From an uncultured Gemmatimonadales bacterium (GTDB lineage: Bacteria > Gemmatimonadota > Gemmatimonadetes > Gemmatimonadales > GWC2-71-9), in contig CAWCVB010000007.1 of the NCBI GenBank assembly GCA_963798915.1, forward strand, positions 96,001-160,000: a stretch of DNA of 64,000 nt, read 5' to 3'. The notes beneath the pieces are model-generated. The model saw nothing but the letters and a program-made list of their open reading frames with translations. It made no database searches and was not told where the DNA came from. Made by a program: the position numbers and the translations under genes. Shown one piece after another: positions 13,564-24,886 of this stretch (the stretch's first letter is position 1; each line of letters begins with the position of its first letter).

Positions 13564-14736
13564 TCACTGTGAGCTTAGCACTCTCGCGATCTTGTCGGCG
13601 AGTGTCGGCAGCCCCTTGAAAATTCTCTCGCTCGACATGTTGGCCAAAAGGACCACGCCAGCGTTCAGCTGAGGGTAGACAACGAGATAGCTGTTGAACC
13701 CGTTCGTGCCACCGTCAGACCAGATCTGGAAATCCGAGGCAGATGGCTGATACTCCAGCCAGTTCAACGCCACACTGTAGATGGAGGGCGAAGGCATTCC
13801 GTTCGCAGACAGGGGTACGATCCGCCCGGACGACGCCCCCACATCCACGGTCTTTCGCAGAGACAGTCGGGCCGCCGCATTGGAGCCGTCGAGTAAGATC
13901 CCGATGTACTTGACCAGATCCTCGGCGGTGCTGCCCAGGCCACCGGCATACCGAAAATAGGGCATGATGAACTCATAGTCCGCGTCGCTACCCGATGCCG
14001 TGTACCCCCGGGCAACGGACGATATGTCGTCCGGGCCGATGAAGAACGTGCGAGCCATGCCTGCGGGGTGCGTCACATACCTCCTTATGAGCTCATCCAT
14101 CGGTTCGGCATATACGTCTTCCAAGACGTATGCCAGCAGCTGTGCACCGGCGTTTGAGTGCTGTTGGCGGGTCCCAGGAACCGTGTCAAGCCGCACCGTG
14201 TGGAGGGCTTGCAGGAAATCGCTTCGGCTGAGGTTCCTATAGTAGTCGATCTTCACGCGGAGAGCGGAGTCGGGAGGAAGGTCCTGCGTCGCGCGGGGAA
14301 GATCCGGCAGCCAATCGGGCAAGGACGACGTAGTGTTCGCGAGGTCCACCAACGTGACGGGTTCGCCGCCGCATTCCAGATTCGGATAACGGCCCTTCAG
14401 GTATTGGCGAACATCATCGTCCAGCTTCACGCGTCCTTCAAGAACTGCATGGGCGAGAACGAGGCTCACGAACGTCTTCGTGATTGAGCCGATCTCGTAG
14501 ACTGTGCGTGCGGTGGGCGAACGCGTTTCTCCTTTCACGATCGTTCCGAAATTGTAGAACTGGCGGCCACCGTTGGCATAGACACCAATGGACAGGCCAA
14601 CGGCATGCTGGTCCCGGACAAAATCCCGACCCAACTGCTCGACGGTCGAATCCAGCCGAGCCGGGGCGTCCTGCGCCAGGACAACCAGCGGCAGCACACT
14701 CAACCCTACGACCAGCGACAGCGTCTTCATTCCCAT
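13564..14736 (-). CDS. Serine hydrolase, beta-lactamase-like (class C/PBP) family, exported
   Basis: YEIGSITK (SxxK), HSN in place of YxN, DGGTNGF. Confidence 0.88.
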   Translation of the reverse strand: MGMKTLSLVVGLSVLPLVVLAQDAPARLDSTVEQLGRDFVRDQHAVGLSIGVYANGGRQFYNFGTIVKGETRSPTARTVYEIGSITKTFVSLVLAHAVLEGRVKLDDDVRQYLKGRYPNLECGGEPVTLVDLANTTSSLPDWLPDLPRATQDLPPDSALRVKIDYYRNLSRSDFLQALHTVRLDTVPGTRQQHSNAGAQLLAYVLEDVYAEPMDELIRRYVTHPAGMARTFFIGPDDISSVARGYTASGSDADYEFIMPYFRYAGGLGSTAEDLVKYIGILLDGSNAAARLSLRKTVDVGASSGRIVPLSANGMPSPSIYSVALNWLEYQPSASDFQIWSDGGTNGFNSYLVVYPQLNAGVVLLANMSSERIFKGLPTLADKIARVLSSQ

Positions 14737-14829
14737 TTCGCCCTACAGTGTGAAGTCGTAGTAGCGAGATTCTCGCCTGTACCACGGCACGATCTCCGCT
14801 ACCGAGAGCCCGTTCGAGTGTGCCGCCCT

Positions 14830-16044
<1,215 letters not shown>

Positions 16045-16058
16045 CTTTCGAGACAGTT

Positions 16059-16191
16059 GCTAACGACCGGCGCTTCAGCGGCGGGGCGGTCACCCTCACA
16101 GCAACCAAAGTTCATTCTCGGCCAACCCGATGGCCGCAGCGCAGGGAATTCCGGCGGACGGCCGCCCGCCAGCTGCAAGCGCGGGTTAGCC
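16059..16191 (-). other. attC: attC site carrying the IS110 insertion in R'
   Basis: gctaac..gcgcttcagc / gctgcaagcgc..gttagcc. Confidence 0.88.
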
Positions 16192-16416
16192 AGCGCCCTT
16201 GCGGGGGGCCCGCCAAGCCAACTCGAGCCGACGGCCATGCGCCGCGCAATCCCGCAGGTAGAGATTGATGAGACTCTGGTACGGGAGTTCCGTCTCCGTG
16301 GCCAACTCCTTGAAATAGGCAATCGTCGCCTCATCCAGCCGGATGGTTACCGGCTTCTTCAGGCGCTTGGCGTAGGGATTCGGCCGGCCCTGGGCAAAGT
16401 CGTAGTGTTTACGCAT
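16186..16416 (-). CDS. brnA: BrnA-family antitoxin
   Basis: YDFAQGRPNPYA..KPVTIRLD..YFK..PYQSLINLYL. Confidence 0.9.
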   Translation of the reverse strand: MRKHYDFAQGRPNPYAKRLKKPVTIRLDEATIAYFKELATETELPYQSLINLYLRDCAAHGRRLELAWRAPRKGAG

Positions 16417-16709
16417 CAGCGATTCCTCGTCACGTACTGCTCGCGCTCCACGCGATCAGCTCGCCGGGCGGAAATGAGGCGGATCAGGCTCTCGGCTTCC
16501 CGATAGCAGTGGACCACCACCAGGACCCGGAGCCGGGCGCTCAGCCCCAACAGGATGAACCGGTCTTCGTCGGCGGAGTGCTCGGGATCGTCGATGAGGA
16601 GCGCGCCCTCATCGCTGAAGACCGTCTCCGCTTCGGCGAAGGCCACGCCATGCTTGGCCTGATTGGCGGTGGCCTTGGCGGGATCCCAGGCGAAGCGGAG
16701 CTTGGGCAT
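16416..16709 (-). CDS. brnT: BrnT-family toxin
   Basis: FAWDPAKATANQAKHGVAF..EDRFILLG..IRLISARRA. Confidence 0.92.
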   Translation of the reverse strand: MPKLRFAWDPAKATANQAKHGVAFAEAETVFSDEGALLIDDPEHSADEDRFILLGLSARLRVLVVVHCYREAESLIRLISARRADRVEREQYVTRNR

Positions 16710-16714
16710 GGCTC

Positions 16715-16743
16715 AATATATGTACGATGTATGTACGTGACAA
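16715..16743 (-). promoter_or_regulatory. brnTA promoter, probably leaderless, with GTACATA direct repeats
   Basis: TTGTCA-17 bp-TATATT, 5 bp before the ATG. Confidence 0.65.
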
Positions 16744-16758
16744 GGTGTTCGCTGCGCT

Positions 16759-16875
16759 GGCTAACGGATTGCACTTCTGCTGCCGGGCCTGGGGCGGGAC
16801 GACCCAGACCTCATAAGATCATAGCGGGTCGTCCCGCCCCGTTCAGGCCCGGACAGCAGCAAGTGCGTGTTAGCC
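16759..16875 (-). other. attC: attC site
   Basis: ggctaac..gcacttctgctg / cagcagcaagtgc..gttagcc. Confidence 0.88.
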
Positions 16876-17130
16876 GGCGCTCGACGTGCTATGGCTGACC
16901 CGCGACCCACCTCCGCCGAAGGATGCCGCGACGCCAAGGATGAAGCCCACACCATACCAGCGCCCCGTATTGTGCTGCTCGAACACGCTCACGCCATCCG
17001 CAAACATGCTGATCCAGACAGTGATCGGCGCGATCAGGCCGTGCCACCAGCCGGCAAAGAATCCAGCGGGTTCCGCACCGGGTTCGGCGTATTTCGAATT
17101 CGCACCGGCGACGGCGAAGGGATTCGGCAT
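16870..17130 (-). CDS. Small membrane protein (PAGFFAGWWHG motif)
   Basis: GAGG RBS; stop codon overlaps attC R''. Confidence 0.75.
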   Translation of the reverse strand: MPNPFAVAGANSKYAEPGAEPAGFFAGWWHGLIAPITVWISMFADGVSVFEQHNTGRWYGVGFILGVAASFGGGGSRVSHSTSSAG

Positions 17131-17170
17131 TGTCACGACCTCCAGTCTCGCGGGGCTTGACATGGCGTCC

Positions 17171-17269
17171 GGCTAACGTCCACACATAAGCTGCAGAGAC
17201 CGGCTCGTGGATGCCAGTCCGGGCACAACCCGTCGGCCGGGCCCTGGCAGCTTCATGCGGTGGTTAGCC
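17171..17269 (-). other. attC: attC site
   Basis: ggctaac..cataagctgc / gcagcttcatg..gttagcc. Confidence 0.85.
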
Positions 17270-17351
17270 GGCGCCAGGTACAGCCGCCGCGAACGGAGCG
17301 GTGTGTGTGCAGCGGATCACAACTCATTTCGCTTTCTGACACGGAGGGAGC

Positions 17352-17801
17352 TTAGGATACCGGCTTCGTCTTCGACCACATAACGTAATTCCTAAAGAAG
17401 TACTTCCACGGCACGAAGATGCCCACCACGGGCGCCCAGACGAAAATGTTGGCCATTGCCTCGGCGGGTGAGCCTGCCAGGGCGCCGGCCCGCCACAGCG
17501 GATACGCAACCGCGACATCCCAGACCAGCTTGTAGAACATCGTGAAGACCACGAGCGGCAGCCACTTCAGCGGGCGTATCAGTCCCAGGATCCCCAATGT
17601 CGGGTATGCCACCCAGACACAGAAGGCTACGGCCTTGGTGTGGTCCCACGGACCCGAGTGGTTGATGATGATGGACCAGTTTGGCAAACCCACGCCGACG
17701 AACATCAGGAGATAGAGCAGCCTCAGGCAGTAGATATTTAGCGGGCGGACGCCTTCGTATGTTATGTAGTTCGGCGTGAAGACGTACTTGATGAAAGACA
17801 T
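17352..17801 (-). CDS. Hypothetical 4-TM membrane protein
   Basis: IYCLRLLYLLMF..LGLIRPLKWLPLVVFTMFYKLVW; GGAGG RBS. Confidence 0.8.
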   Translation of the reverse strand: MSFIKYVFTPNYITYEGVRPLNIYCLRLLYLLMFVGVGLPNWSIIINHSGPWDHTKAVAFCVWVAYPTLGILGLIRPLKWLPLVVFTMFYKLVWDVAVAYPLWRAGALAGSPAEAMANIFVWAPVVGIFVPWKYFFRNYVMWSKTKPVS

Positions 17802-17950
17802 TACGAGCCTCCTTTCCGAGAAGCCAAACCTTGTTCGCGCGAATGCTGCGACATGCGCTTCTTGTTGGGCTTGCAGCCGACATCGTCGACAGCGGCCCGC
17901 GCCCACCTCAGGCGCCAATGAGGGCGGCCCGATCCCAGGCCTCTGCGTCC

Positions 17951-18046
17951 GGCTTACGGATCGCATCTAAGCAGCGGGCGGCCGCCGACTGCCAGAGCAT
18001 TACTCCGCCGGCGGGCCGCGCCGCCTGCTTCAAATGCTAGTTAGGC
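17951..18046 (-). other. attC: attC site with mutated R' (GTAAGCC)
   Basis: ggcttac..gcatctaagcag / ctgcttcaaatgc..gttaggc. Confidence 0.75.
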
Positions 18047-18106
18047 GCCAACGGTCACCCGCCACACTCCGACGCCGACAGTCTCTAAACGTACCCTGCC
18101 AGGTCC

Positions 18107-18493
18107 CTATTCGGCTCTAGGAAGGGCCGTGCGCGCGCGAAAGGAGCGCCATAGAGCGTGGAGAGCAAGGATTGCTGTAAATGCCCCAGTCACACCGAGT
18201 GCGAATAGGGTCCACACGAAGAAGAAACCCCAGCGAGTGGCCAGCGGGCCCACAGTGTGCAGGTATGGCATGGTCGCCGCTGCCACCCCACCGAGAAGCA
18301 TGATGATGAACCCGGCACGCCGACCTGCCAGCTCTACGGTGCCATACAGCAGGGTGAGCATGATGACAAGCAGAATCGTGACATCGCTTGGCGACATCCC
18401 GTTGGTTTGATGAAGCGCGTCGTGCGTCAGGTGGAATGTGGTCAACACGAGAGTGAGCAACGACGAGATGGTCAGCGTCCGATTGTGTTTCAT
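18107..18493 (-). CDS. Hypothetical 4-TM membrane protein
   Basis: Hydrophobic ORF in cassette position. Confidence 0.75.
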   Translation of the reverse strand: MKHNRTLTISSLLTLVLTTFHLTHDALHQTNGMSPSDVTILLVIMLTLLYGTVELAGRRAGFIIMLLGGVAAATMPYLHTVGPLATRWGFFFVWTLFALGVTGAFTAILALHALWRSFRARTALPRAE

Positions 18494-18898
18494 AAGCTCT
18501 GGCGGAAGTTTGTGGTTAGCTATCGGGCCTGGACAGCCGTGGAACGCCACGAACTCTTGGTGCCAGGTCCGTTGGCGCCTAACGGCTACGGTCCTCCCGC
18601 GGGCGACTCAGCGGCTCGCAGCATCAATAATGGCCCGCAGCGCGTGCCCTCCGAGGCGCACAACCGCTAATTCCTTTGAAACGTGCGCGCCAGGCGGGAG
18701 CAACGGCTTGCCAGACGGCGCCCGGCCCTCCCCCACGGGCCGCTGCTCGTGACCGGGGAAGCAGCCCCGATACTCTGCCGCACCATCTGGTGGCCAACAC
18801 TCGCCACCGGGAAGCTGGGGGAAGCAGGATCTCACAACCATCCATTCCGTCTTGGACGAGTAGCGCTCGTGGCCCGCTCGCAGCTTGTAGCGGCGTCC

Positions 18899-19032
18899 GG
18901 CTAACGTGATGCGCTTCTGCGGCGGGCTGGCCGCCACTCATAAATCAATGTTCCGCTTCGGCCGGGCGGGTGCAAGCAGCGCAGGGAGCTGTGGTCAGCA
19001 GCCGGCCCGTCCGCTGCAAGCGCGGGTTAGAC
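18899..19032 (-). other. attC: attC site
   Basis: ggctaac..gcgcttctgcgg / ccgctgcaagcgc..gttagac. Confidence 0.88.
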
Positions 19033-19033
19033 C

Positions 19034-19330
19034 TCAGCGCCGCGATTGCCAACGTCGTGGATGACGCCGGGTATGCGCCACTGCGATGACCGCTATCTGT
19101 TCCGGTTCTAGGACATAATAGACGGCATATGGGAAGCGCCGCACATGTGCTCGCCGAATCTCTTCGTGGGCGCGCGCATAGCTCTCCGGCTGCCGCTGAA
19201 TGGCGGCAAACGTCGCCCGCACGGCCCGGGTGAACTCGCTCCCGAGGCCCGGGAGGCGACGCTCATACCAAGTGAAGGCGTCGTCGAGGTCGGTGGCGGC
19301 TTCCAGCTCAACGAGAAAGCGCGGCGTCAT
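19034..19330 (-). CDS. RelE/ParE-family toxin
   Basis: Full-length paralog of 3537-3791. Confidence 0.9.
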   Translation of the reverse strand: MTPRFLVELEAATDLDDAFTWYERRLPGLGSEFTRAVRATFAAIQRQPESYARAHEEIRRAHVRRFPYAVYYVLEPEQIAVIAVAHTRRHPRRWQSRR

Positions 19331-19542
19331 CGGCCGCGCTGCTCGATCTCTCGCAGGACGTCTTCGGCGGGTCGCCCCCGGCCAGGGTCCTGCCGATGGA
19401 GCTCCAGGCGCCGCTCCAACTCCGCCTTGAGTTCGGGGTCCAGCGCCTCTTCCCGAGGCTCGAGACTGTCCCACAGATCCTCGGCGAGCTGAATCCGCTC
19501 CTCCGGGGTCAGATGGGAAAAGTCAAAGATGGGCGAAGTCAT
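19327..19542 (-). CDS. Addiction-module antitoxin
   Basis: Paralog of 3788-4003. Confidence 0.88.
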   Translation of the reverse strand: MTSPIFDFSHLTPEERIQLAEDLWDSLEPREEALDPELKAELERRLELHRQDPGRGRPAEDVLREIEQRGR

Positions 19543-19592
19543 AGATCCAATTTGGTGTCCGGCCGGGGCGAGCGCAAGCAATCCCGGCTGAG

Positions 19593-19690
19593 GTCTAACG
19601 ACAGGCAAATCAGCTGCGGGGCGGCGGCGCAGCGTGATCGTCTCGACCAGCGGAGGCCGCCGCCCCGTCCGCTGCAAGCGCGGGTTAGGC
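19593..19690 (-). other. attC: attC site
   Basis: gtctaac..cagctgcgggg / ccccgtccgctgc..gttaggc. Confidence 0.82.
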
Positions 19691-19986
19691 GGCGGCCTCG
19701 GGCGGCGTTGTTCGGATGGGCCTGGCAAGCGCCCGGTGCAGCTTGCCTGCCCAGAGCAGCATATCTCGATCTCCGATCAGATCGAGCACAGCCGGACTGC
19801 CGATTGCTCCGAAATGAAATACCTCGCTTCTGAGAAGCCCGAGTCGTTCGCGGCGTGAAGCATCGTCGAGGGGGAAATCAACCGACGGATCGGAAGCCCT
19901 CAGACTGCGCCAGCCCTCGACCACGGTTTACAGGCTGGCCAGGTGCAAGGTCGTCAACGTCCAGCAGGGAATGCCGTAGCCGCCTA

Positions 19987-20822
19987 TCACTTCACGTACA
20001 CACTTTGCGGAACGTATTGCTTGCCGTACTTCTCAAGCTCGCAGACGTAGCTGAGTTCTCGGTACCCGCCGAGCTCGTTCTGCGCCTCCACCGTCCCGAT
20101 CACGAGGAGGCCGTCCTTCGCGACTGTTTCTGTGATACTCGGGTCGGCACCGAAGCGGGCCGTTCAGGAGACTTAAGCTTGGCTTTCACTTGATCTCGGC
20201 AGGTCGCTCGTGCTTTGGCACGCAACTCTGCAGGCAAGTGTTTGCCGAGTAGCGAATCCGTACTCGCTTGTACCGCCAATTCCCGCCTATGCCTTGCCGT
20301 TTCAGCTTCAGCAGACTCTGCTCTGCCGCCGCATGCTCGGATCGCCCGACTGAGGTAAGTCGCCATGGTATCGGCGGTGCCGCGATCACCGGCGAGGATG
20401 TTCAGTGTCTCCTCGAGCCGCGGCCACGCTCCCATGGCTAGGGTCAACGTTCCACGCTGCAAGTTGTCAACGGCGAATCAATGGCTTCGCCCGACGTTGT
20501 GACAGCTTGGGCCAGAAACAGTCCCCTATCGGCCAGACTGCTTCACCTCGACCTTGGGTGCCAGAACCGATAGATCCACTTGGAAGACACGGATGACGGG
20601 CGCGAGTGAATTATCTTGATCTTCGCGGAGTGTCAATCGGCATCCGTCGGCATCCGTAATTCTCTGGTCGAACTTAAATGCGTCCTCATCAACGCTGAAT
20701 GCGGCCTTCCCGTTGGTTAGGAGATAATCACGGAGTAGCTCCGCGGCCTGGGGTGCCGGGGTGGCCGCTTGTGCGACTAGCAGAGTTGGCCAGAAGCTGA
20801 GGAGGTGCCAAGGGTGCCGCAT
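19987..20822 (-). pseudogene. Degraded exported protein with multiple frameshifts
   Basis: Signal-like N-terminus, then CRDQVKAKLKSP and GTVEAQNELGGY..YVC segments in different frames. Confidence 0.55.
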
Positions 20823-20889
20823 ACCAGACCTCAAGGTTGAGTTCCAGATTCTTGAACTAGGATAGCTCGCGTTGATCAGAGCTCTGCCG

Positions 20890-20981
20890 CTGCGTTTGTG
20901 CGGAGCTGCTCACCTCCTCAACGCTGCTGAAGCCGAGCGGTACTGGAACGCTGAATACGCCTGATTTTCGAGACAGTTGCT
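20890..20981 (+). mobile_element. Relic IS110 transposase 3' end and right end, at a second attC R' core
   Basis: Degenerate ..WNAEYA* then TTTTCGAGACAGTTG-CT|AACGAC, matching 16024-16067. Confidence 0.85.
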
Positions 20982-21105
20982 AACGACAGGCAAATCAGCT
21001 GCAAACGACCTGCGAAAACATCAATTCCTTATAGCCTCTGGGAGCGTAGCACGCCAGCGGCGCCTCGGCCGGTCCGCGTTTGCCAGCTGCATTTGCGTGT
21101 TAGAC
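20979..21105 (-). other. attC: attC site
   Basis: gctaac..gcaaatcagctg / cagctgcatttgc..gttagac. Confidence 0.88.
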
Positions 21106-21471
21106 AGCAGGGCCATCGGAGCGCCGGATGCGGATCCGGTCTTCCTCAACGATCCACAGCCGCTGCACGATCGGCTCGGTCGCGAACAGCGGCAGGATCC
21201 GGGCCATGAGCCGCAGCACACGTTCCCGATCCGGCTCGAACGGTCGCAGGACAACGATGCCGGCAGCCTCGGCCGGCGGGTAGGCACGGATATCAGCGAA
21301 ATCGAGATCTAACGTGATGAGGACTCGCTGCTCAGTCTGACACTGAGCGAAGACCATCGCGTCGACCGCTCCTCCAAGCGTCTCATCATAAACCGTATGA
21401 CAATCATGGCCGCCTTGCCGGAGCAAGTCGGCGACTTGGATGGGCACATTTTCATCGATCTTGCAGCGCAT
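21100..21471 (-). CDS. DUF5615-family PIN-like toxin
   Basis: KIDENVP..GHDCHTV..RVLITLDLDFAD. Confidence 0.88.
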   Translation of the reverse strand: MRCKIDENVPIQVADLLRQGGHDCHTVYDETLGGAVDAMVFAQCQTEQRVLITLDLDFADIRAYPPAEAAGIVVLRPFEPDRERVLRLMARILPLFATEPIVQRLWIVEEDRIRIRRSDGPAV

Positions 21472-21485
21472 CAGCGGGCGCGACG

Positions 21486-21713
21486 CTAGGCGGGCAGCGC
21501 GACGACACGTTCCTGCGCGAGGTCAGCCGCGTACGCCAGCGCCGCTTGCACGGCTTCTCGAGTAAGGCTCGGGTAGCTCTGGATGATGGCCTCTGGCGAG
21601 GAGCCCGCCGCCAAGTTGGCCAGCACCACGGCGACAGGGATCCGGGTGCCACGAATGCACGCTTTACCATGGGCGATTGCGGGATCAACTGAGATATGGT
21701 CCTGCCAGCGCAT
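21486..21713 (-). CDS. DUF433-family antitoxin
   Basis: ISVDPAIAHGKACIRGTRIPV..YPSLTREAVQAALAYA. Confidence 0.92.
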   Translation of the reverse strand: MRWQDHISVDPAIAHGKACIRGTRIPVAVVLANLAAGSSPEAIIQSYPSLTREAVQAALAYAADLAQERVVALPA

Positions 21714-21763
21714 GACGTCCTCCTCCGACCGTGACCTCGATGATACTATCAACGTCGGCTGCT

Positions 21764-21823
21764 GTCTAACGGCATGGCGATAAGCGGCGGGTGAAGCCCG
21801 TCCGCTTCATCGCCGGGTTCGCC
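21764..21823 (-). other. attC: Short attC site (60 bp)
   Basis: gtctaac..gcgataagcgg / ccgcttcatcgc..gttcgcc. Confidence 0.82.
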
Positions 21824-21827
21824 GGCA

Positions 21828-22880
21828 TCATCGCATAATGGTCTCGCGCAGCCACCCCAGAAGCTGGTTCAAGTAAAGCTCGGATATCGGACCGCCCGAA
21901 TCCGGCGTCCCAGTCTCCATAAGATGGTCGGCCTGCGGGATCCGCTGAATCGTCACTGCCGGGTTGGAGCGCGTCGCTTGTCGGATATTCGCGATGCTTT
22001 CCTCGACCGGAACCCATGGGTCCGCTTGGGCAAAGAAGAAGGCGATCGGAACCCGAACCCGAGCGAGTGCGGCCAGCGGATCATAGTCCATCTCCGCGTA
22101 CCACTTCGTGAGCCTGGGCTCAGCGGGCAGGTCGCCCCTACCGGGGAGAAAGACCTGGCTGAACCATGGCTCGTGCCGGATGGTCGCGATGGCCTTCTCA
22201 GCATCCGTCCTCGTAGCCCGCCCTCGGTAGTAATCGTTCACCACAGCTCGAATCCGCAGCGCTCGGTCAATGATCTCCGGCGGGTGACCGGCGGCTCGAA
22301 GCGCGGTCGCTGCGGCATAATCCATCTGGCCCGCCGGGCTCACGCCGGGACCGGACACTGAGACGACGAAAGCGATATCGCGTGACATGGTCGCGGCGAG
22401 CGGGCCCAGCCAGCCGCCTTGACTCACTCCCCAGACACCTATCCGCTCAGGGTCGATGTCGCGTCGCGATTTCAGCAGTTCAACTCCGGCGATTCCATCC
22501 GCTGCGAGGTCCTGGAAGGTCGCTGTGTTGAAATCGCCGGTGGACGAACCTGAGCCCCGGCGGTCGAAGATTAAGACGGCGATGCCCGCGGCAGGGAGCG
22601 CGGTGGCAAGATGCTGATACGCATGGAAACTGCGCGTCCCGCCGCCCGCAGCATGGAATACGACCACAGCTGGGTACCGCCCGACCCCAGAGGGAATGTA
22701 CAGGGTGCCCGACAGGTCGATGCTGCCATTGTGAAAGGAAACCTGTTCTGCCGACTCTGCCGAGCGCCCGGCACCGGCTGGATCAGGGGCCGTTCCAAGA
22801 GTCACGAGGGCGCCCAGGATGATGCCTAGCCACATAACGGGGTCACGACCCAGAGAGTGAGTGGTGGCGGGCTTGACCAT
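21828..22880 (-). CDS. Exported alpha/beta hydrolase
   Basis: FDRRGSGSS, WGVSQGG, ADH. Confidence 0.9.
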   Translation of the reverse strand: MVKPATTHSLGRDPVMWLGIILGALVTLGTAPDPAGAGRSAESAEQVSFHNGSIDLSGTLYIPSGVGRYPAVVVFHAAGGGTRSFHAYQHLATALPAAGIAVLIFDRRGSGSSTGDFNTATFQDLAADGIAGVELLKSRRDIDPERIGVWGVSQGGWLGPLAATMSRDIAFVVSVSGPGVSPAGQMDYAAATALRAAGHPPEIIDRALRIRAVVNDYYRGRATRTDAEKAIATIRHEPWFSQVFLPGRGDLPAEPRLTKWYAEMDYDPLAALARVRVPIAFFFAQADPWVPVEESIANIRQATRSNPAVTIQRIPQADHLMETGTPDSGGPISELYLNQLLGWLRETIMR

Positions 22881-22911
22881 TGGTGTCTTCAGGCCTCCGT
22901 CGCGGCTTGCC

Positions 22912-23047
22912 GGCGAACGACAAGCGCTTCAGCTGCGGGGCGGTCGCCCCGTCAGGAATCAAAGTTCAGTCTCGGCCAGACGGGACGCTAGTACCGCACG
23001 GAACCCCGGCCGACGGCCGCCCCGCCAGCTGCAAGCGCAGGTTAGAC
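22912..23047 (-). other. attC: attC site
   Basis: ggcgaac..gcgcttcagc / gctgcaagcgc..gttagac. Confidence 0.85.
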
Positions 23048-23054
23048 CGTTGCT

Positions 23055-23492
23055 CTAGAGGAGCTTTGGAAACAGCTCCTCGAGACGCTCAAATCGGTTA
23101 GATGGCAAGAGCTGCTCGTGCTCATTGACCTTGAAATCGCCGTCTCCGGCCAAGCGAATGCGCTGGTCGCGGATTCGCAGTTCTATCTGCCCACCGGAAA
23201 GTACATAGCCTGCTGAGGGAGAATGATGTAGGAAAACGCCGAACCATCGATGGCCGCTCGCTGACAGTCTCGTGAGCTGATTCTTAGTGAGCCCCCAGAA
23301 GCCGGGATCGCTGGTGCTCTCCTTGACGTAGAGAACAGTCGGACGTGGAACCGTCGCGAGCGCGATGAGGTTGGCGGACCGGCGCGTTCCACCGGACCAC
23401 CGCGAGACGGCGATGCCACGTGCGCAGAGGAGGCGGCTCAGCGATGTCTCGAACTTAGGAACCAGGCGCAGCGCCATTCCTAGACTCCACAT
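23055..23492 (-). CDS. Hypothetical protein, first cassette after attI
   Basis: ORF fills the interval between attI and attC; start uncertain. Confidence 0.7.
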   Translation of the reverse strand: MWSLGMALRLVPKFETSLSRLLCARGIAVSRWSGGTRRSANLIALATVPRPTVLYVKESTSDPGFWGLTKNQLTRLSASGHRWFGVFLHHSPSAGYVLSGGQIELRIRDQRIRLAGDGDFKVNEHEQLLPSNRFERLEELFPKLL

Positions 23493-23581: not shown

Positions 23582-23856
23582 TCCGGGAAGACTGCAAAAC
23601 CTGACCGGCCCAACAAGTCCGCCGGGCTCCGTACCGCCAGCCCACCGCGGTTCAGGACATGGGTATAAAGCATGGTAGTGCTGACATCCCGGTGCCCCAG
23701 CAGTTCCTGCACCGTCCGGATGTCGTAGCCCGCCTCCAGCTGGTGGGTCGCGAAGCTGTGGCGGAAGGTGTGACAGCTTGCCCGCTTGCCAATGCCCGAG
23801 CGCCGCACTGCCTCCGCCCGCTGCACCGCACTCGGATGTAGATGATGCCGCCGCCT
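23578..23856 (-). pseudogene. intI: Integron integrase, C-terminal fragment
   Basis: [13 protein letters not shown] (IntI-specific insert), [41 protein letters not shown]. Confidence 0.92.
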
Positions 23857-23888
23857 TCTTCGGCTGCAAACGCAGATCAGGCGGCGCG

Positions 23889-24593
23889 TTAGTTCTCTTC
23901 AAGCGCCTCTAAAACCGCCCGGGTTGAACAAACGCGTCCAAATACCATGGCGAACGTCTCCAGCGCCGATCGGTGTCGATCGTCGCCTGGAGCGGCACAG
24001 CTGTCTGCAAGAATGATGACGCTGAAGCCGCCATCGGCCAATTCGCGGGCTGCCTGAGTAACGCAAACGTCCGTGGTCACGCCGACAACGAGCACAGTGT
24101 CTACGCCAAGCACGTGGAGCGTTTGATCCAGCCGGGCAGAGTTCAGCGGTCCGCTGGTCGTCTTTGCCAGGACGGGTTCACCTTGCCGGGGAGCGAGGCT
24201 CGCGTGAATCCGCCAACTGTCGTCATCCCGCGGTGGGTACATTGGCGCACCAACCGTCTTCTGGCTCAATTGGTTGAGTTGCCGAGCCCAGCCGGGCAGA
24301 TCCCGCCCGTCACTGCGGAAGGAGCCGAGAGCCGTGAAGTAGATCGGGATTCCCAGTGTGCGACAAGACTTGAGCACTTCCTGGACATTTGGAACTACGG
24401 TAGTTCTGACACGGTCGAAATACGCAGCGGCTGCGTCAGGCTGAAACTTGGCTAGGACCTGGCCGAACGGGAACTCAGGTTCCACGAAATACCGCTGCAT
24501 GTCGACCACAAGCAGGGCGCTACGATCAGGCCGCACACGGAGGGTTTCCTCACCCTTGAGGGCGGCGTATGCTTCAAAGTCGCTGATGTCCAT
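23889..24593 (-). CDS. Isochorismatase-family cysteine hydrolase
   Basis: [17 protein letters not shown]; followed by half attC (R'' 23888-23894). Confidence 0.92.
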
Positions 24594-24633
24594 TCCGCAA
24601 TCCTCCCAGATGCAGAGCTCGTTGTTGCCGTCT

Positions 24634-24729
24634 GGTATCTCTGAATCTCACGTCCGCAGCACGTTCTGGATAGGCTGTTAACCCGTTGCGCCTCAGGCTT
24701 CCAGGCCGTTCGTTCGCTTGGACAGGCTA
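24634..24729 (+). mobile_element. Relic IS110 left end (bridge-RNA 5' half) at a third attC-type CT core
   Basis: GCCGT-CT|GGTATCTC...TTCTGGATAGG...AACCCGTTGCGCCT...CCGTTCGTT, homologous to 14917-15003; followed by half attC ending attagac (24783). Confidence 0.8.
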
Positions 24730-24886
24730 TGGTGCCCCAGCCGCAACTTCGCACGCAGAAGCGGCAGCAGGCGCGAATTAGACTGCGACGGGAACGCGGG
24801 GGTGCCGGCTCGGGACCCGGATGCTTGCCTCATCATCCAGTCTTCACTTCAACGGTCCGTCCGCAGGAACCGTTTTCTCGCAAACC

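Follow-up and report, generated by a model that had tools for sequence, protein, structure and literature searches.

The decayed right end of an IS110-family element beside an attC site in a Gemmatimonadales cassette array

The 94 nt at 20886-20979 (+ strand) of the window, which is the whole 64,000-nt stretch of DNA analysed here, are the decayed right end of an IS110-family element, and they abut an attC site within a cassette array. The window corresponds to C7:96001-160000 of the genome, of which C2, C4 and C13 are other contigs. From sequence comparison and structure prediction we judge it very probable (roughly 0.85) that this relic is the dead right end of an IS110-group insertion sequence (IS) that was once inserted, under the guidance of a bridge RNA, at the CT of an attC R' box (GTT-AG-GC on the top strand).

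In this reading the 7-nt right target guide UCGUUAG of the bridge RNA would pair with the CTAACGA of the attC, and a DEDD recombinase would exchange strands at the CT core in the manner of IS621. The left end and some 92% of the transposase gene would later have been deleted, leaving a 94-nt stump that could neither make a guide nor move alone. The empty target site would read GC-CT-AACGACAGG. The relic is not the only trace of this lineage: the array has further remains, namely a 5'-truncated young copy and two left-end stumps, and a second intact copy lies on another contig.

The relic and the attC beside it

The features that define the relic, and those of the intact copy with which it was compared, are as follows.

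20886..20979, + strand: right-end relic of the IS, made up of a 15-nt non-coding tail preceded by about 76 nt from the decayed 3' part of the transposase coding sequence (blastn, alignment, translation)
20962..20964, + strand: stop codon of the decayed transposase frame, ..YWNAEYA* (sequence, translation)
20980..20981, + strand: CT core dinucleotide at the junction of IS end and attC, in the same position as at 16060-61 and in the copies on C2 and at 77 kb of C7
20978..21108, + strand (= bottom strand): attC adjoining the relic (attC model 96.2 bits, E 1.2e-20; hairpin fold)
about 14829..16061, + strand: intact IS110-type element with transposase gene 15112-16044 (Pfam, NCBIfam, metagenome contigs)
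16058..16194, + strand: attC occupied by the intact copy (attC model 130.7 bits; fold)

The relic reads ...TACTGGAACGCTGAATACGCCTGA TTTTCGAGACAGTTG CT AACGAC, its non-coding tail being 20965-79, and the intact copy reads ...TGGAACGCAGAACACGCTTGA CTTTCGAGACAGTTG CT AACGAC, with its stop codon at 16042-44 and its CT at 16060-61. The 15-nt tails after the two stop codons differ by one base, and both end in GAGACAGTTG before CT AACGAC. In translation the relic ends ...ERYWNAEYA* and the intact gene ...NRRWNAEHA*. The last 15 codons of the relic are in frame, with one codon missing relative to the intact gene, while single-base gaps occur farther upstream in the DNA alignment; all that remains of the transposase is about 25 decayed C-terminal codons. 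By blastn the relic is 78.6% identical to the intact IS over 103 columns (E 7e-14; window positions 20904-21002, which include the first attC bases) or, with other settings, 74.7% over 99 columns (E 3.8e-11; 20886-20979). An earlier note, made from the letters of the sequence, had described a decayed transposase C-terminus and a right end meeting the attC at CT/AACGAC, a description that the sequence, the translation and the 75-79% identity to the intact IS confirm. When 20780-20905 was aligned locally with the left end of the element, the score of 23 equalled the shuffle mean (22.9) and gave no left-end remnant. With no similarity to the element left of 20886, the relic consists of a right end only, and the loss of its original left junction leaves its insertion only partly reconstructible.

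The terminal 12-mer GAGACAGTTGCT offers a second view of this junction. It occurs exactly twice in the window and four times in the genome (3.3 Mb), where about 0.4 occurrences would be expected. AACG and an attC follow in all four cases, each of these attCs was found by the attC covariance model, and the four sites adjoin their attCs at the same CT, as the earlier note had proposed to check. Allowing up to two mismatches gave seven matches in the window against 3.9 expected, and those with one or two mismatches (2677, 23043, 56973, 62624 and 63626) look like chance matches or attC R'' boxes. The shorter ACAGTTGCT was uninformative as a marker by itself, with 13 genomic matches where about 25 would be expected. 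A similarity arising by chance, in favour of which there is nothing but the short length of the feature, has a negligible probability beside the two E values above and a 12-mer that exceeds its genomic expectation always in the same context.

The attC assignments come from a covariance model of our own, built from 10 local sites and distinct from that of IntegronFinder, which was run on the window and on six further pieces of the genome and found 46 sites there at E <=0.0064. The sites form arrays on C7 (from about C7:71343 to window position 23050), C2, C4 and C13, and almost all lie on one strand within an array. They are imperfect palindromes with R''/R' boxes (RYYYAAC...GTTRRRY) and bases left unpaired on one arm, and they recur between short, like-oriented ORFs. 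The attC at 20978-21108 has CTAAC(GA) at its left end and GTTAGAC, the R'' box, at its right end; both this site and 16058-16194 are predicted to form long imperfect hairpins whose right arm has single-base bulges. The cassette ORFs, encoded on the minus strand, end where the attCs have their right ends, and with the bulged arm on the right this identifies the left end of the attC as the R' box. In an attC the integrase crosses over at G|TT, and the CT core, being the AG of the top-strand GTT-AG-GC, lies 2-4 nt 3' of that point.

The earlier note held further that the relic ends at the same nucleotide as the intact copy but in a different attC. The CT at 20980-81 does take the position of the CT at 16060-61, and the two attCs can be aligned in their arms only. 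A relic and an intact copy that both descend from one insertion, duplicated together with its attC and then decayed in one of the two places, would account for the identical junction and the first 8 identical flank bases. This is highly improbable, however, as the two attCs have unrelated centres, 21-25% of positions differ between the IS parts when the intact copy is 96.6-99% identical to other copies, and no duplication lies over the relic. The nearest sequence to the centre of the relic's attC is C2:508944-509052 (79%), and a segmental duplication shared with the intact copy is excluded for 19700-23100. The adjoining attC is thus no duplicate of 16059-16191, a point on which the earlier note had made its claim depend. 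In the absence of any duplication covering the relic, its insertion was an event older than, and separate from, that of the intact copy, and its divergence of 21-25% from the live copies likewise indicates an older invasion than that of the intact copy 5 kb away. Two short X4 metagenome contigs match only 20980-21019 (4 differences in 40 bases), their similarity ending exactly at 20980, and three loose ends before base 20980 were seen in X4 contigs.

Decay has not been even along the relic. Its last 20 nt contain one difference from the live element, whereas about one third of the positions differ in the part upstream. Under a uniform decay of 25%, such a contrast between end and interior has a p of ~0.02 (our own estimate, for one locus), so that an identical copy decaying uniformly does not fully account for the pattern. 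The better-kept terminus may stem from a diverged lineage that was not sampled or from some constraint; chance, or a retained function as donor half-site, may also explain it. Among 80 related loci no closer parent lineage was found, the best match being the window's own lineage at 74.7%. If the stump had been kept as a competent right donor half-site, it could, together with the intact left end at 14829, excise as a 6.15-kb composite circle carrying cassettes. The 20 terminal nucleotides with their single difference would fit this idea, as would the orientation of the stump, which is that of the intact copy, and the description of a 22-bp donor as enough for IS621 with the RNA in trans (PMC11208160). 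We nevertheless regard it as very unlikely: the conservation signal is weak, at p ~0.02 from one locus, and the contigs of four metagenome runs contain no joint from 20979 back to 14829 or 14914, although contigs drop rare forms, such that a missing joint says nothing for or against composite circles.

The intact element and its predicted bridge RNA

The transposase of the intact copy combines an N-terminal RuvC-like DEDD domain (DEDD_Tnp_IS110, PF01548, E 1.3e-24) with a C-terminal Transposase_20 domain (PF02371, E 4.7e-19), the arrangement of the IS110 family, and scores 232.7 bits against the NCBIfam model for IS110 family RNA-guided transposases (NF033542, cut-off 140). Over its full length it is similar to ISCro4 (E 1.9e-42) and IS621 (E 1.2e-37), both of them solved bridge recombinases. 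The left end is long and the right end short, with 283 nt between the CT core and the ATG (196 nt without an 87-bp duplication) and 15 nt between the stop codon and the CT core. A CT core is found at both junctions, which read ..GC CT TGTATC on the left and ..GTTG CT AACG on the right in the copies of the window and of C2. Contigs from four soil-metagenome runs of two studies contain the same IS from 14913/14914 to 16063-16089 and differing sequences beyond both ends, with right flanks that all begin with CTAAC. None of the public runs held more than 0.16 of the words of 14300-21300, and the four that were compared cover essentially only the IS.

The 87-bp duplication is exact and in tandem (14827-14913 and 14914-15000). 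It opens the left end of the intact copy and provides it with two target-binding loops, and its junction, GTTCGTTAGC-CT-TGTATC, has the element's own left terminus joined at CT, 2 bases past the right target guide. In the C2 copy and in the metagenome contigs this left-end unit is present only once. The left flank of the intact copy (14816-14826) has GAGCCCGTTCG, an 11-mer identical to 14986-14996 for which we roughly estimate a chance of 0.01-0.02, and which may be left over from an earlier left-end stump.

Upstream of the transposase gene the left end is predicted to encode a bridge RNA with the following parts.

14956..15085, + strand: core of the predicted bridge RNA (folds; covariation with flanks and ends)
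14969-76, + strand: left target guide TTGCGCCT (predicted bridge RNA)
14994-15000, + strand: right target guide TCGTTAG (predicted bridge RNA)
15038-45, + strand: left donor guide ACAGTTGC (predicted bridge RNA)
15069-72, + strand: right donor guide CAAG (predicted bridge RNA)

We infer the bridge RNA, its ends and the recombination from the sequence and from the biology of IS621/ISCro4 and ISEc21, as set out in PMC11208160 and PMC11187229. Folding of 21 left ends with RNAalifold gave two stem-loop modules with internal loops and 26 pairs, 7 of which have compensatory changes, and the predicted donor loop matches the element's own ends (ACAGTTG-CT-TGTA). No Rfam family exceeded its threshold for the left end. 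The match to sX15, a Xanthomonadaceae sRNA, at 14943-15095 on the minus strand (21.9 bits against a gathering cut-off of 55, E 0.64) is opposite in strand to the predicted bridge RNA and is probably noise.

The right target guide TCGTTAG, which recurs at 14907-13, is the exact reverse complement of CTAACGA, such that the 7/7 complementarity between flank and guide on which the earlier note relied is real. As evidence on its own it is weak. CTAACGA is the commonest local variant of the R' box, carried by 11 of the 42 unoccupied attCs and by three of the four occupied ones (Fisher p 0.08), and CTAACG is present in 26 of the 42; the heptamer being the local R' consensus, a full match to the guide adds little by itself. 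The left target guide matches the left flanks that were seen over only 4-6 nt (GC/GT + CT), a short match that is consistent with the target's left side being formed by the next cassette's variable start.

The other copies and remains differ in age. The full copy on C2 is 96.6% identical to the intact copy and the 5'-truncated copy at C7:77060-77633 is 99% identical, while the two left-end-only relics stand at 78-83% (C7:74912-75021 at 82-83%, window 24632-24721 at 78%). Elements of different age at attCs imply that the sites were targeted repeatedly over time. The proposal of the earlier note, a repeated and site-specific targeting of the attC R' box, is accordingly supported by copies at 99%, 96.6%, 75-79% and 78-83%, and the reading of the target by the guide is backed by covariation.

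Relatives and the known attC-targeting elements

A scan of one genome per species yielded the 80 related loci, and the 25 of these with a transposase at least 73% identical are all in Gemmatimonadales or Gemmatimonadota MAGs. Relatives share the right end ..ACAGTTG CT; the flank varies by lineage, and the stretch homologous to 14994-15000 varies with the flank, as in the following pairs.

guide ACCCTAG, flank CTAGGGT: loci L012, L014 and L015
guide GCCGCAG, flank CTGCGGC: Nitrospira loci
guide GCGTTAG, flank CTAACGC: loci L030, L031, L034 and L054
guide CCGTTAG, flank CTAACGG: loci L035 and L048

Over 38 unique pairs, right target guide and right flank agree at a mean of 4.34 of the 6 positions beyond the core, where 2000 permutations gave a mean of 2.09 and a maximum of 2.89. 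Guide and flank could be taken from 64 of 82 elements, the 18 without a pattern match having been dropped, and the count keeps the C2 copy, scored 1/6 at a wrongly picked site. The donor guide covaries with the right end as well, reading ACAGTCGC in L037 and L039 and ACAGGTGC in L034. An attC model match beginning 2 nt before the CT core was found at 18 of the 80 related loci. The 25 loci with at least 73% transposase identity comprise 15 with an attC in this register, four that are retargeted, one at a contig end and five with a CTAA(C/T) flank and no model match. Several related loci have further attCs within 1.5 kb and thus lie in arrays. The naturally retargeted series (CTAACGA, CTAACGC, CTAACGG, CTAGGGT, CTGCGGC and others) documents which guide positions are read.

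Loci L012-L015, in one Gemmatimonadales MAG, hold an 86%-identical relative retargeted to CTAGGGT. At L013 and L014 a partial left end of another copy precedes the element and stops exactly at the CT of the left target guide. The guide-coding DNA (TTCCGC-CT-AGGGG) is itself a near-perfect target, and this element thus inserts into its own kind.

With its long left and short right end, its CT cores and a predicted bridge RNA whose target- and donor-binding loops carry guides covarying with flanks and ends, the element has the characters of the IS110 group (IS621-like, not IS1111). The nearest named transposases are ISMno7 (51.5%) and ISEc32 (48.9%), over 97-98% of the protein; both are ISfinder names as given by PGAP annotation. 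At about 50% identity the element is, by its sequence, different from both and has no name. It should be noted that its position outside the IS1111-attC clade (ISPst6/ISPa21/ISKpn4) is judged indirectly, with ISMno7 as a stand-in: ISMno7 is filed under family IS110 and is 20.8-21.2% identical to ISPst6, ISKpn4 and ISPa21 in the source data of Siddiquee et al. 2024 (PMC11187229).

The known attC-targeting ISs are described in PMC11187229 as IS1111 family members with a guide RNA downstream of the transposase gene. The present element resembles the IS1111-attC group (ISPst6, ISPa21, ISKpn4, ISPa25) in being an IS with a DEDD transposase and a guide RNA, predicted in this case, that is orientation-specific in attC, with the transposase antisense to the cassettes. 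It differs in the guide region, which precedes the transposase gene (196 nt when the duplication is left out), the stretch after the gene, where IS1111-attC elements have their seek RNA, measuring only 15 nt; in the subterminal inverted repeats of 7-17 bp, none of at least 7 nt being found between the first and last 50 nt, where the longest exact inverted match is 5 nt and not terminal; and in the site, as it occupies the R' box, on the 3' side of the attC, whereas PMC3001079 describes IS1111-attC elements as inserted near the 5' end. With guide upstream, 15 nt downstream, no subterminal repeats and an R' site, the element would work like IS621 and share the ecology of the IS1111-attC group without being a member of it.

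From IS621 and ISCro4, to which it is joined by full-length protein similarity, a long left and short right end, the CT core and a two-loop bridge RNA (predicted here), it is set apart by its target, the attC R' box, as IS621 targets REP elements according to Durrant et al. 2024 (PMC11208160). Group IIC-attC introns are likewise an attC-specialised mobile lineage antisense to cassettes, but Leon et al. 2010 (PMC3001079) describe them as retroelements that act on the folded attC strand near the 5' end of attC, with no DEDD recombinase. For the IS110 group, unlike IS1111, a literature search found no published description of attC targeting.

The relic is an ordinary remnant of what its sequence indicates to be a new attC-targeting member of the IS110 group, and IS footprints in cassette arrays have already been described for the IS1111-attC group. 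That group was reportedly the subject of Tetu & Holmes 2008 and of Post & Hall 2009, and the former is reported to have found that IS1111-attC elements leave degenerate footprints in chromosomal cassette arrays. As genomic debris, the relic itself dates an older invasion of a chromosomal cassette array; together with the four other remains it shows that the cycle known from IS1111-attC elements, of infection followed by decay, also runs in another phylum. The element would represent a bridge-RNA recombinase of the IS110 group whose natural target is the conserved R' arm of attC. It is conceivable, though we are inclined to doubt it, that attC targeting arose independently in the IS110 group proper, in a lineage of Gemmatimonadales MAGs with an upstream bridge RNA that reads the R'-L' arm by a 7-nt guide, needs almost nothing opposite and lands 2-4 nt 3' of the crossover. 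A landing there would make the element, or a stump that keeps the terminus, the leading part of the next cassette, to be carried by integron recombination or, with a live copy upstream, to move blocks of cassettes.

The cassette array around the relic

The relic lies between two cassettes, and a third feature farther along the array combines a left-end relic with part of an attC.

21100..21752, - strand: cassette that owns the relic's attC, with a DUF5615/PIN-like gene (21100-21471) and a DUF433 gene (21486-21752) (Pfam)
19694..20979, - strand: downstream cassette that formally begins with the relic; its own attC is 19593-19693
24632..24786, + strand: a further insertion scar, in which a left-end-only relic (24632-24721, 78%) runs into half of an attC, that of the R'' side (to 24786; weak attC model match, E 0.2)

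The stop codon of the DUF5615/PIN-like gene overlaps the R'' end of the relic's attC, and the two genes of this cassette are probably a toxin-antitoxin pair. In the downstream cassette the ORFs 20526-20834 and 20100-20462 have no Pfam matches.

Lying 3' of the crossover, the relic belongs to the downstream cassette and could have been moved beside its present attC after insertion. The stump would in that case have been inserted site-specifically, though into another attC, and brought to this one by cassette shuffling, whether by integrase or by attC-attC recombination, with only CTAA remaining of the original flank. The position of the CT core relative to the R' box would allow this, and the array has visibly been rearranged: a 1.18-kb cassette is duplicated at 99.4%, the attC at 19593-19693 is a hybrid whose left arm is that of the relic's attC, and the attC by the young truncated copy (C7:77609-77651) has arms nearly as those of the relic's attC. 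On the other side, the arms of 20978-21108 pair with each other (GCAAAT/ATTTGC, CAGCTG), and the site thus does not look like an arm-swapped hybrid; moreover, the only intI is truncated. Because an integrase exchange would replace just the last few bases, it would leave no visible trace. We take such a transfer to be unlikely, and prefer insertion of the element into the attC that the relic now adjoins.

The integron integrase fragment is at 23614-23865 (- strand), covers model positions 229-314 of 315 and scores 125 bits against a cut-off of 265. It represents the last ~86 residues and sits inside the array in the orientation of the cassettes. The assembly (genome 84.8% complete) contains no full-length intI and hence no complete integron; with only this C-terminal fragment, the array is probably no longer served by an integrase of its own.

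Several further rearrangements were observed in the array. In the hybrid attC 19593-19693 the left arm (GTCTAACGACAGGCAAATCAGCTGC) is that of the relic's attC and the right arm, of the common GCAAGCGCGGGTTAG type, is unpaired with it, which suggests a deletion between two attCs. The duplicated cassette is 21766-22941, with a 350-aa ORF (21828-22880, - strand); its second copy lies at C7:93229-94404 and includes parts of both flanking attCs. The truncated copy at C7:77060-77651 (L003) adjoins a 43-nt attC whose centre is deleted and whose arms share 24 of 25 and 20 of 20 bases with those of the relic's attC. The left-end-only relic at 24632-24721 begins CT GGTATCTCTG and lies 38 nt upstream of an isochorismatase-like cassette ORF (23889-24593, - strand).
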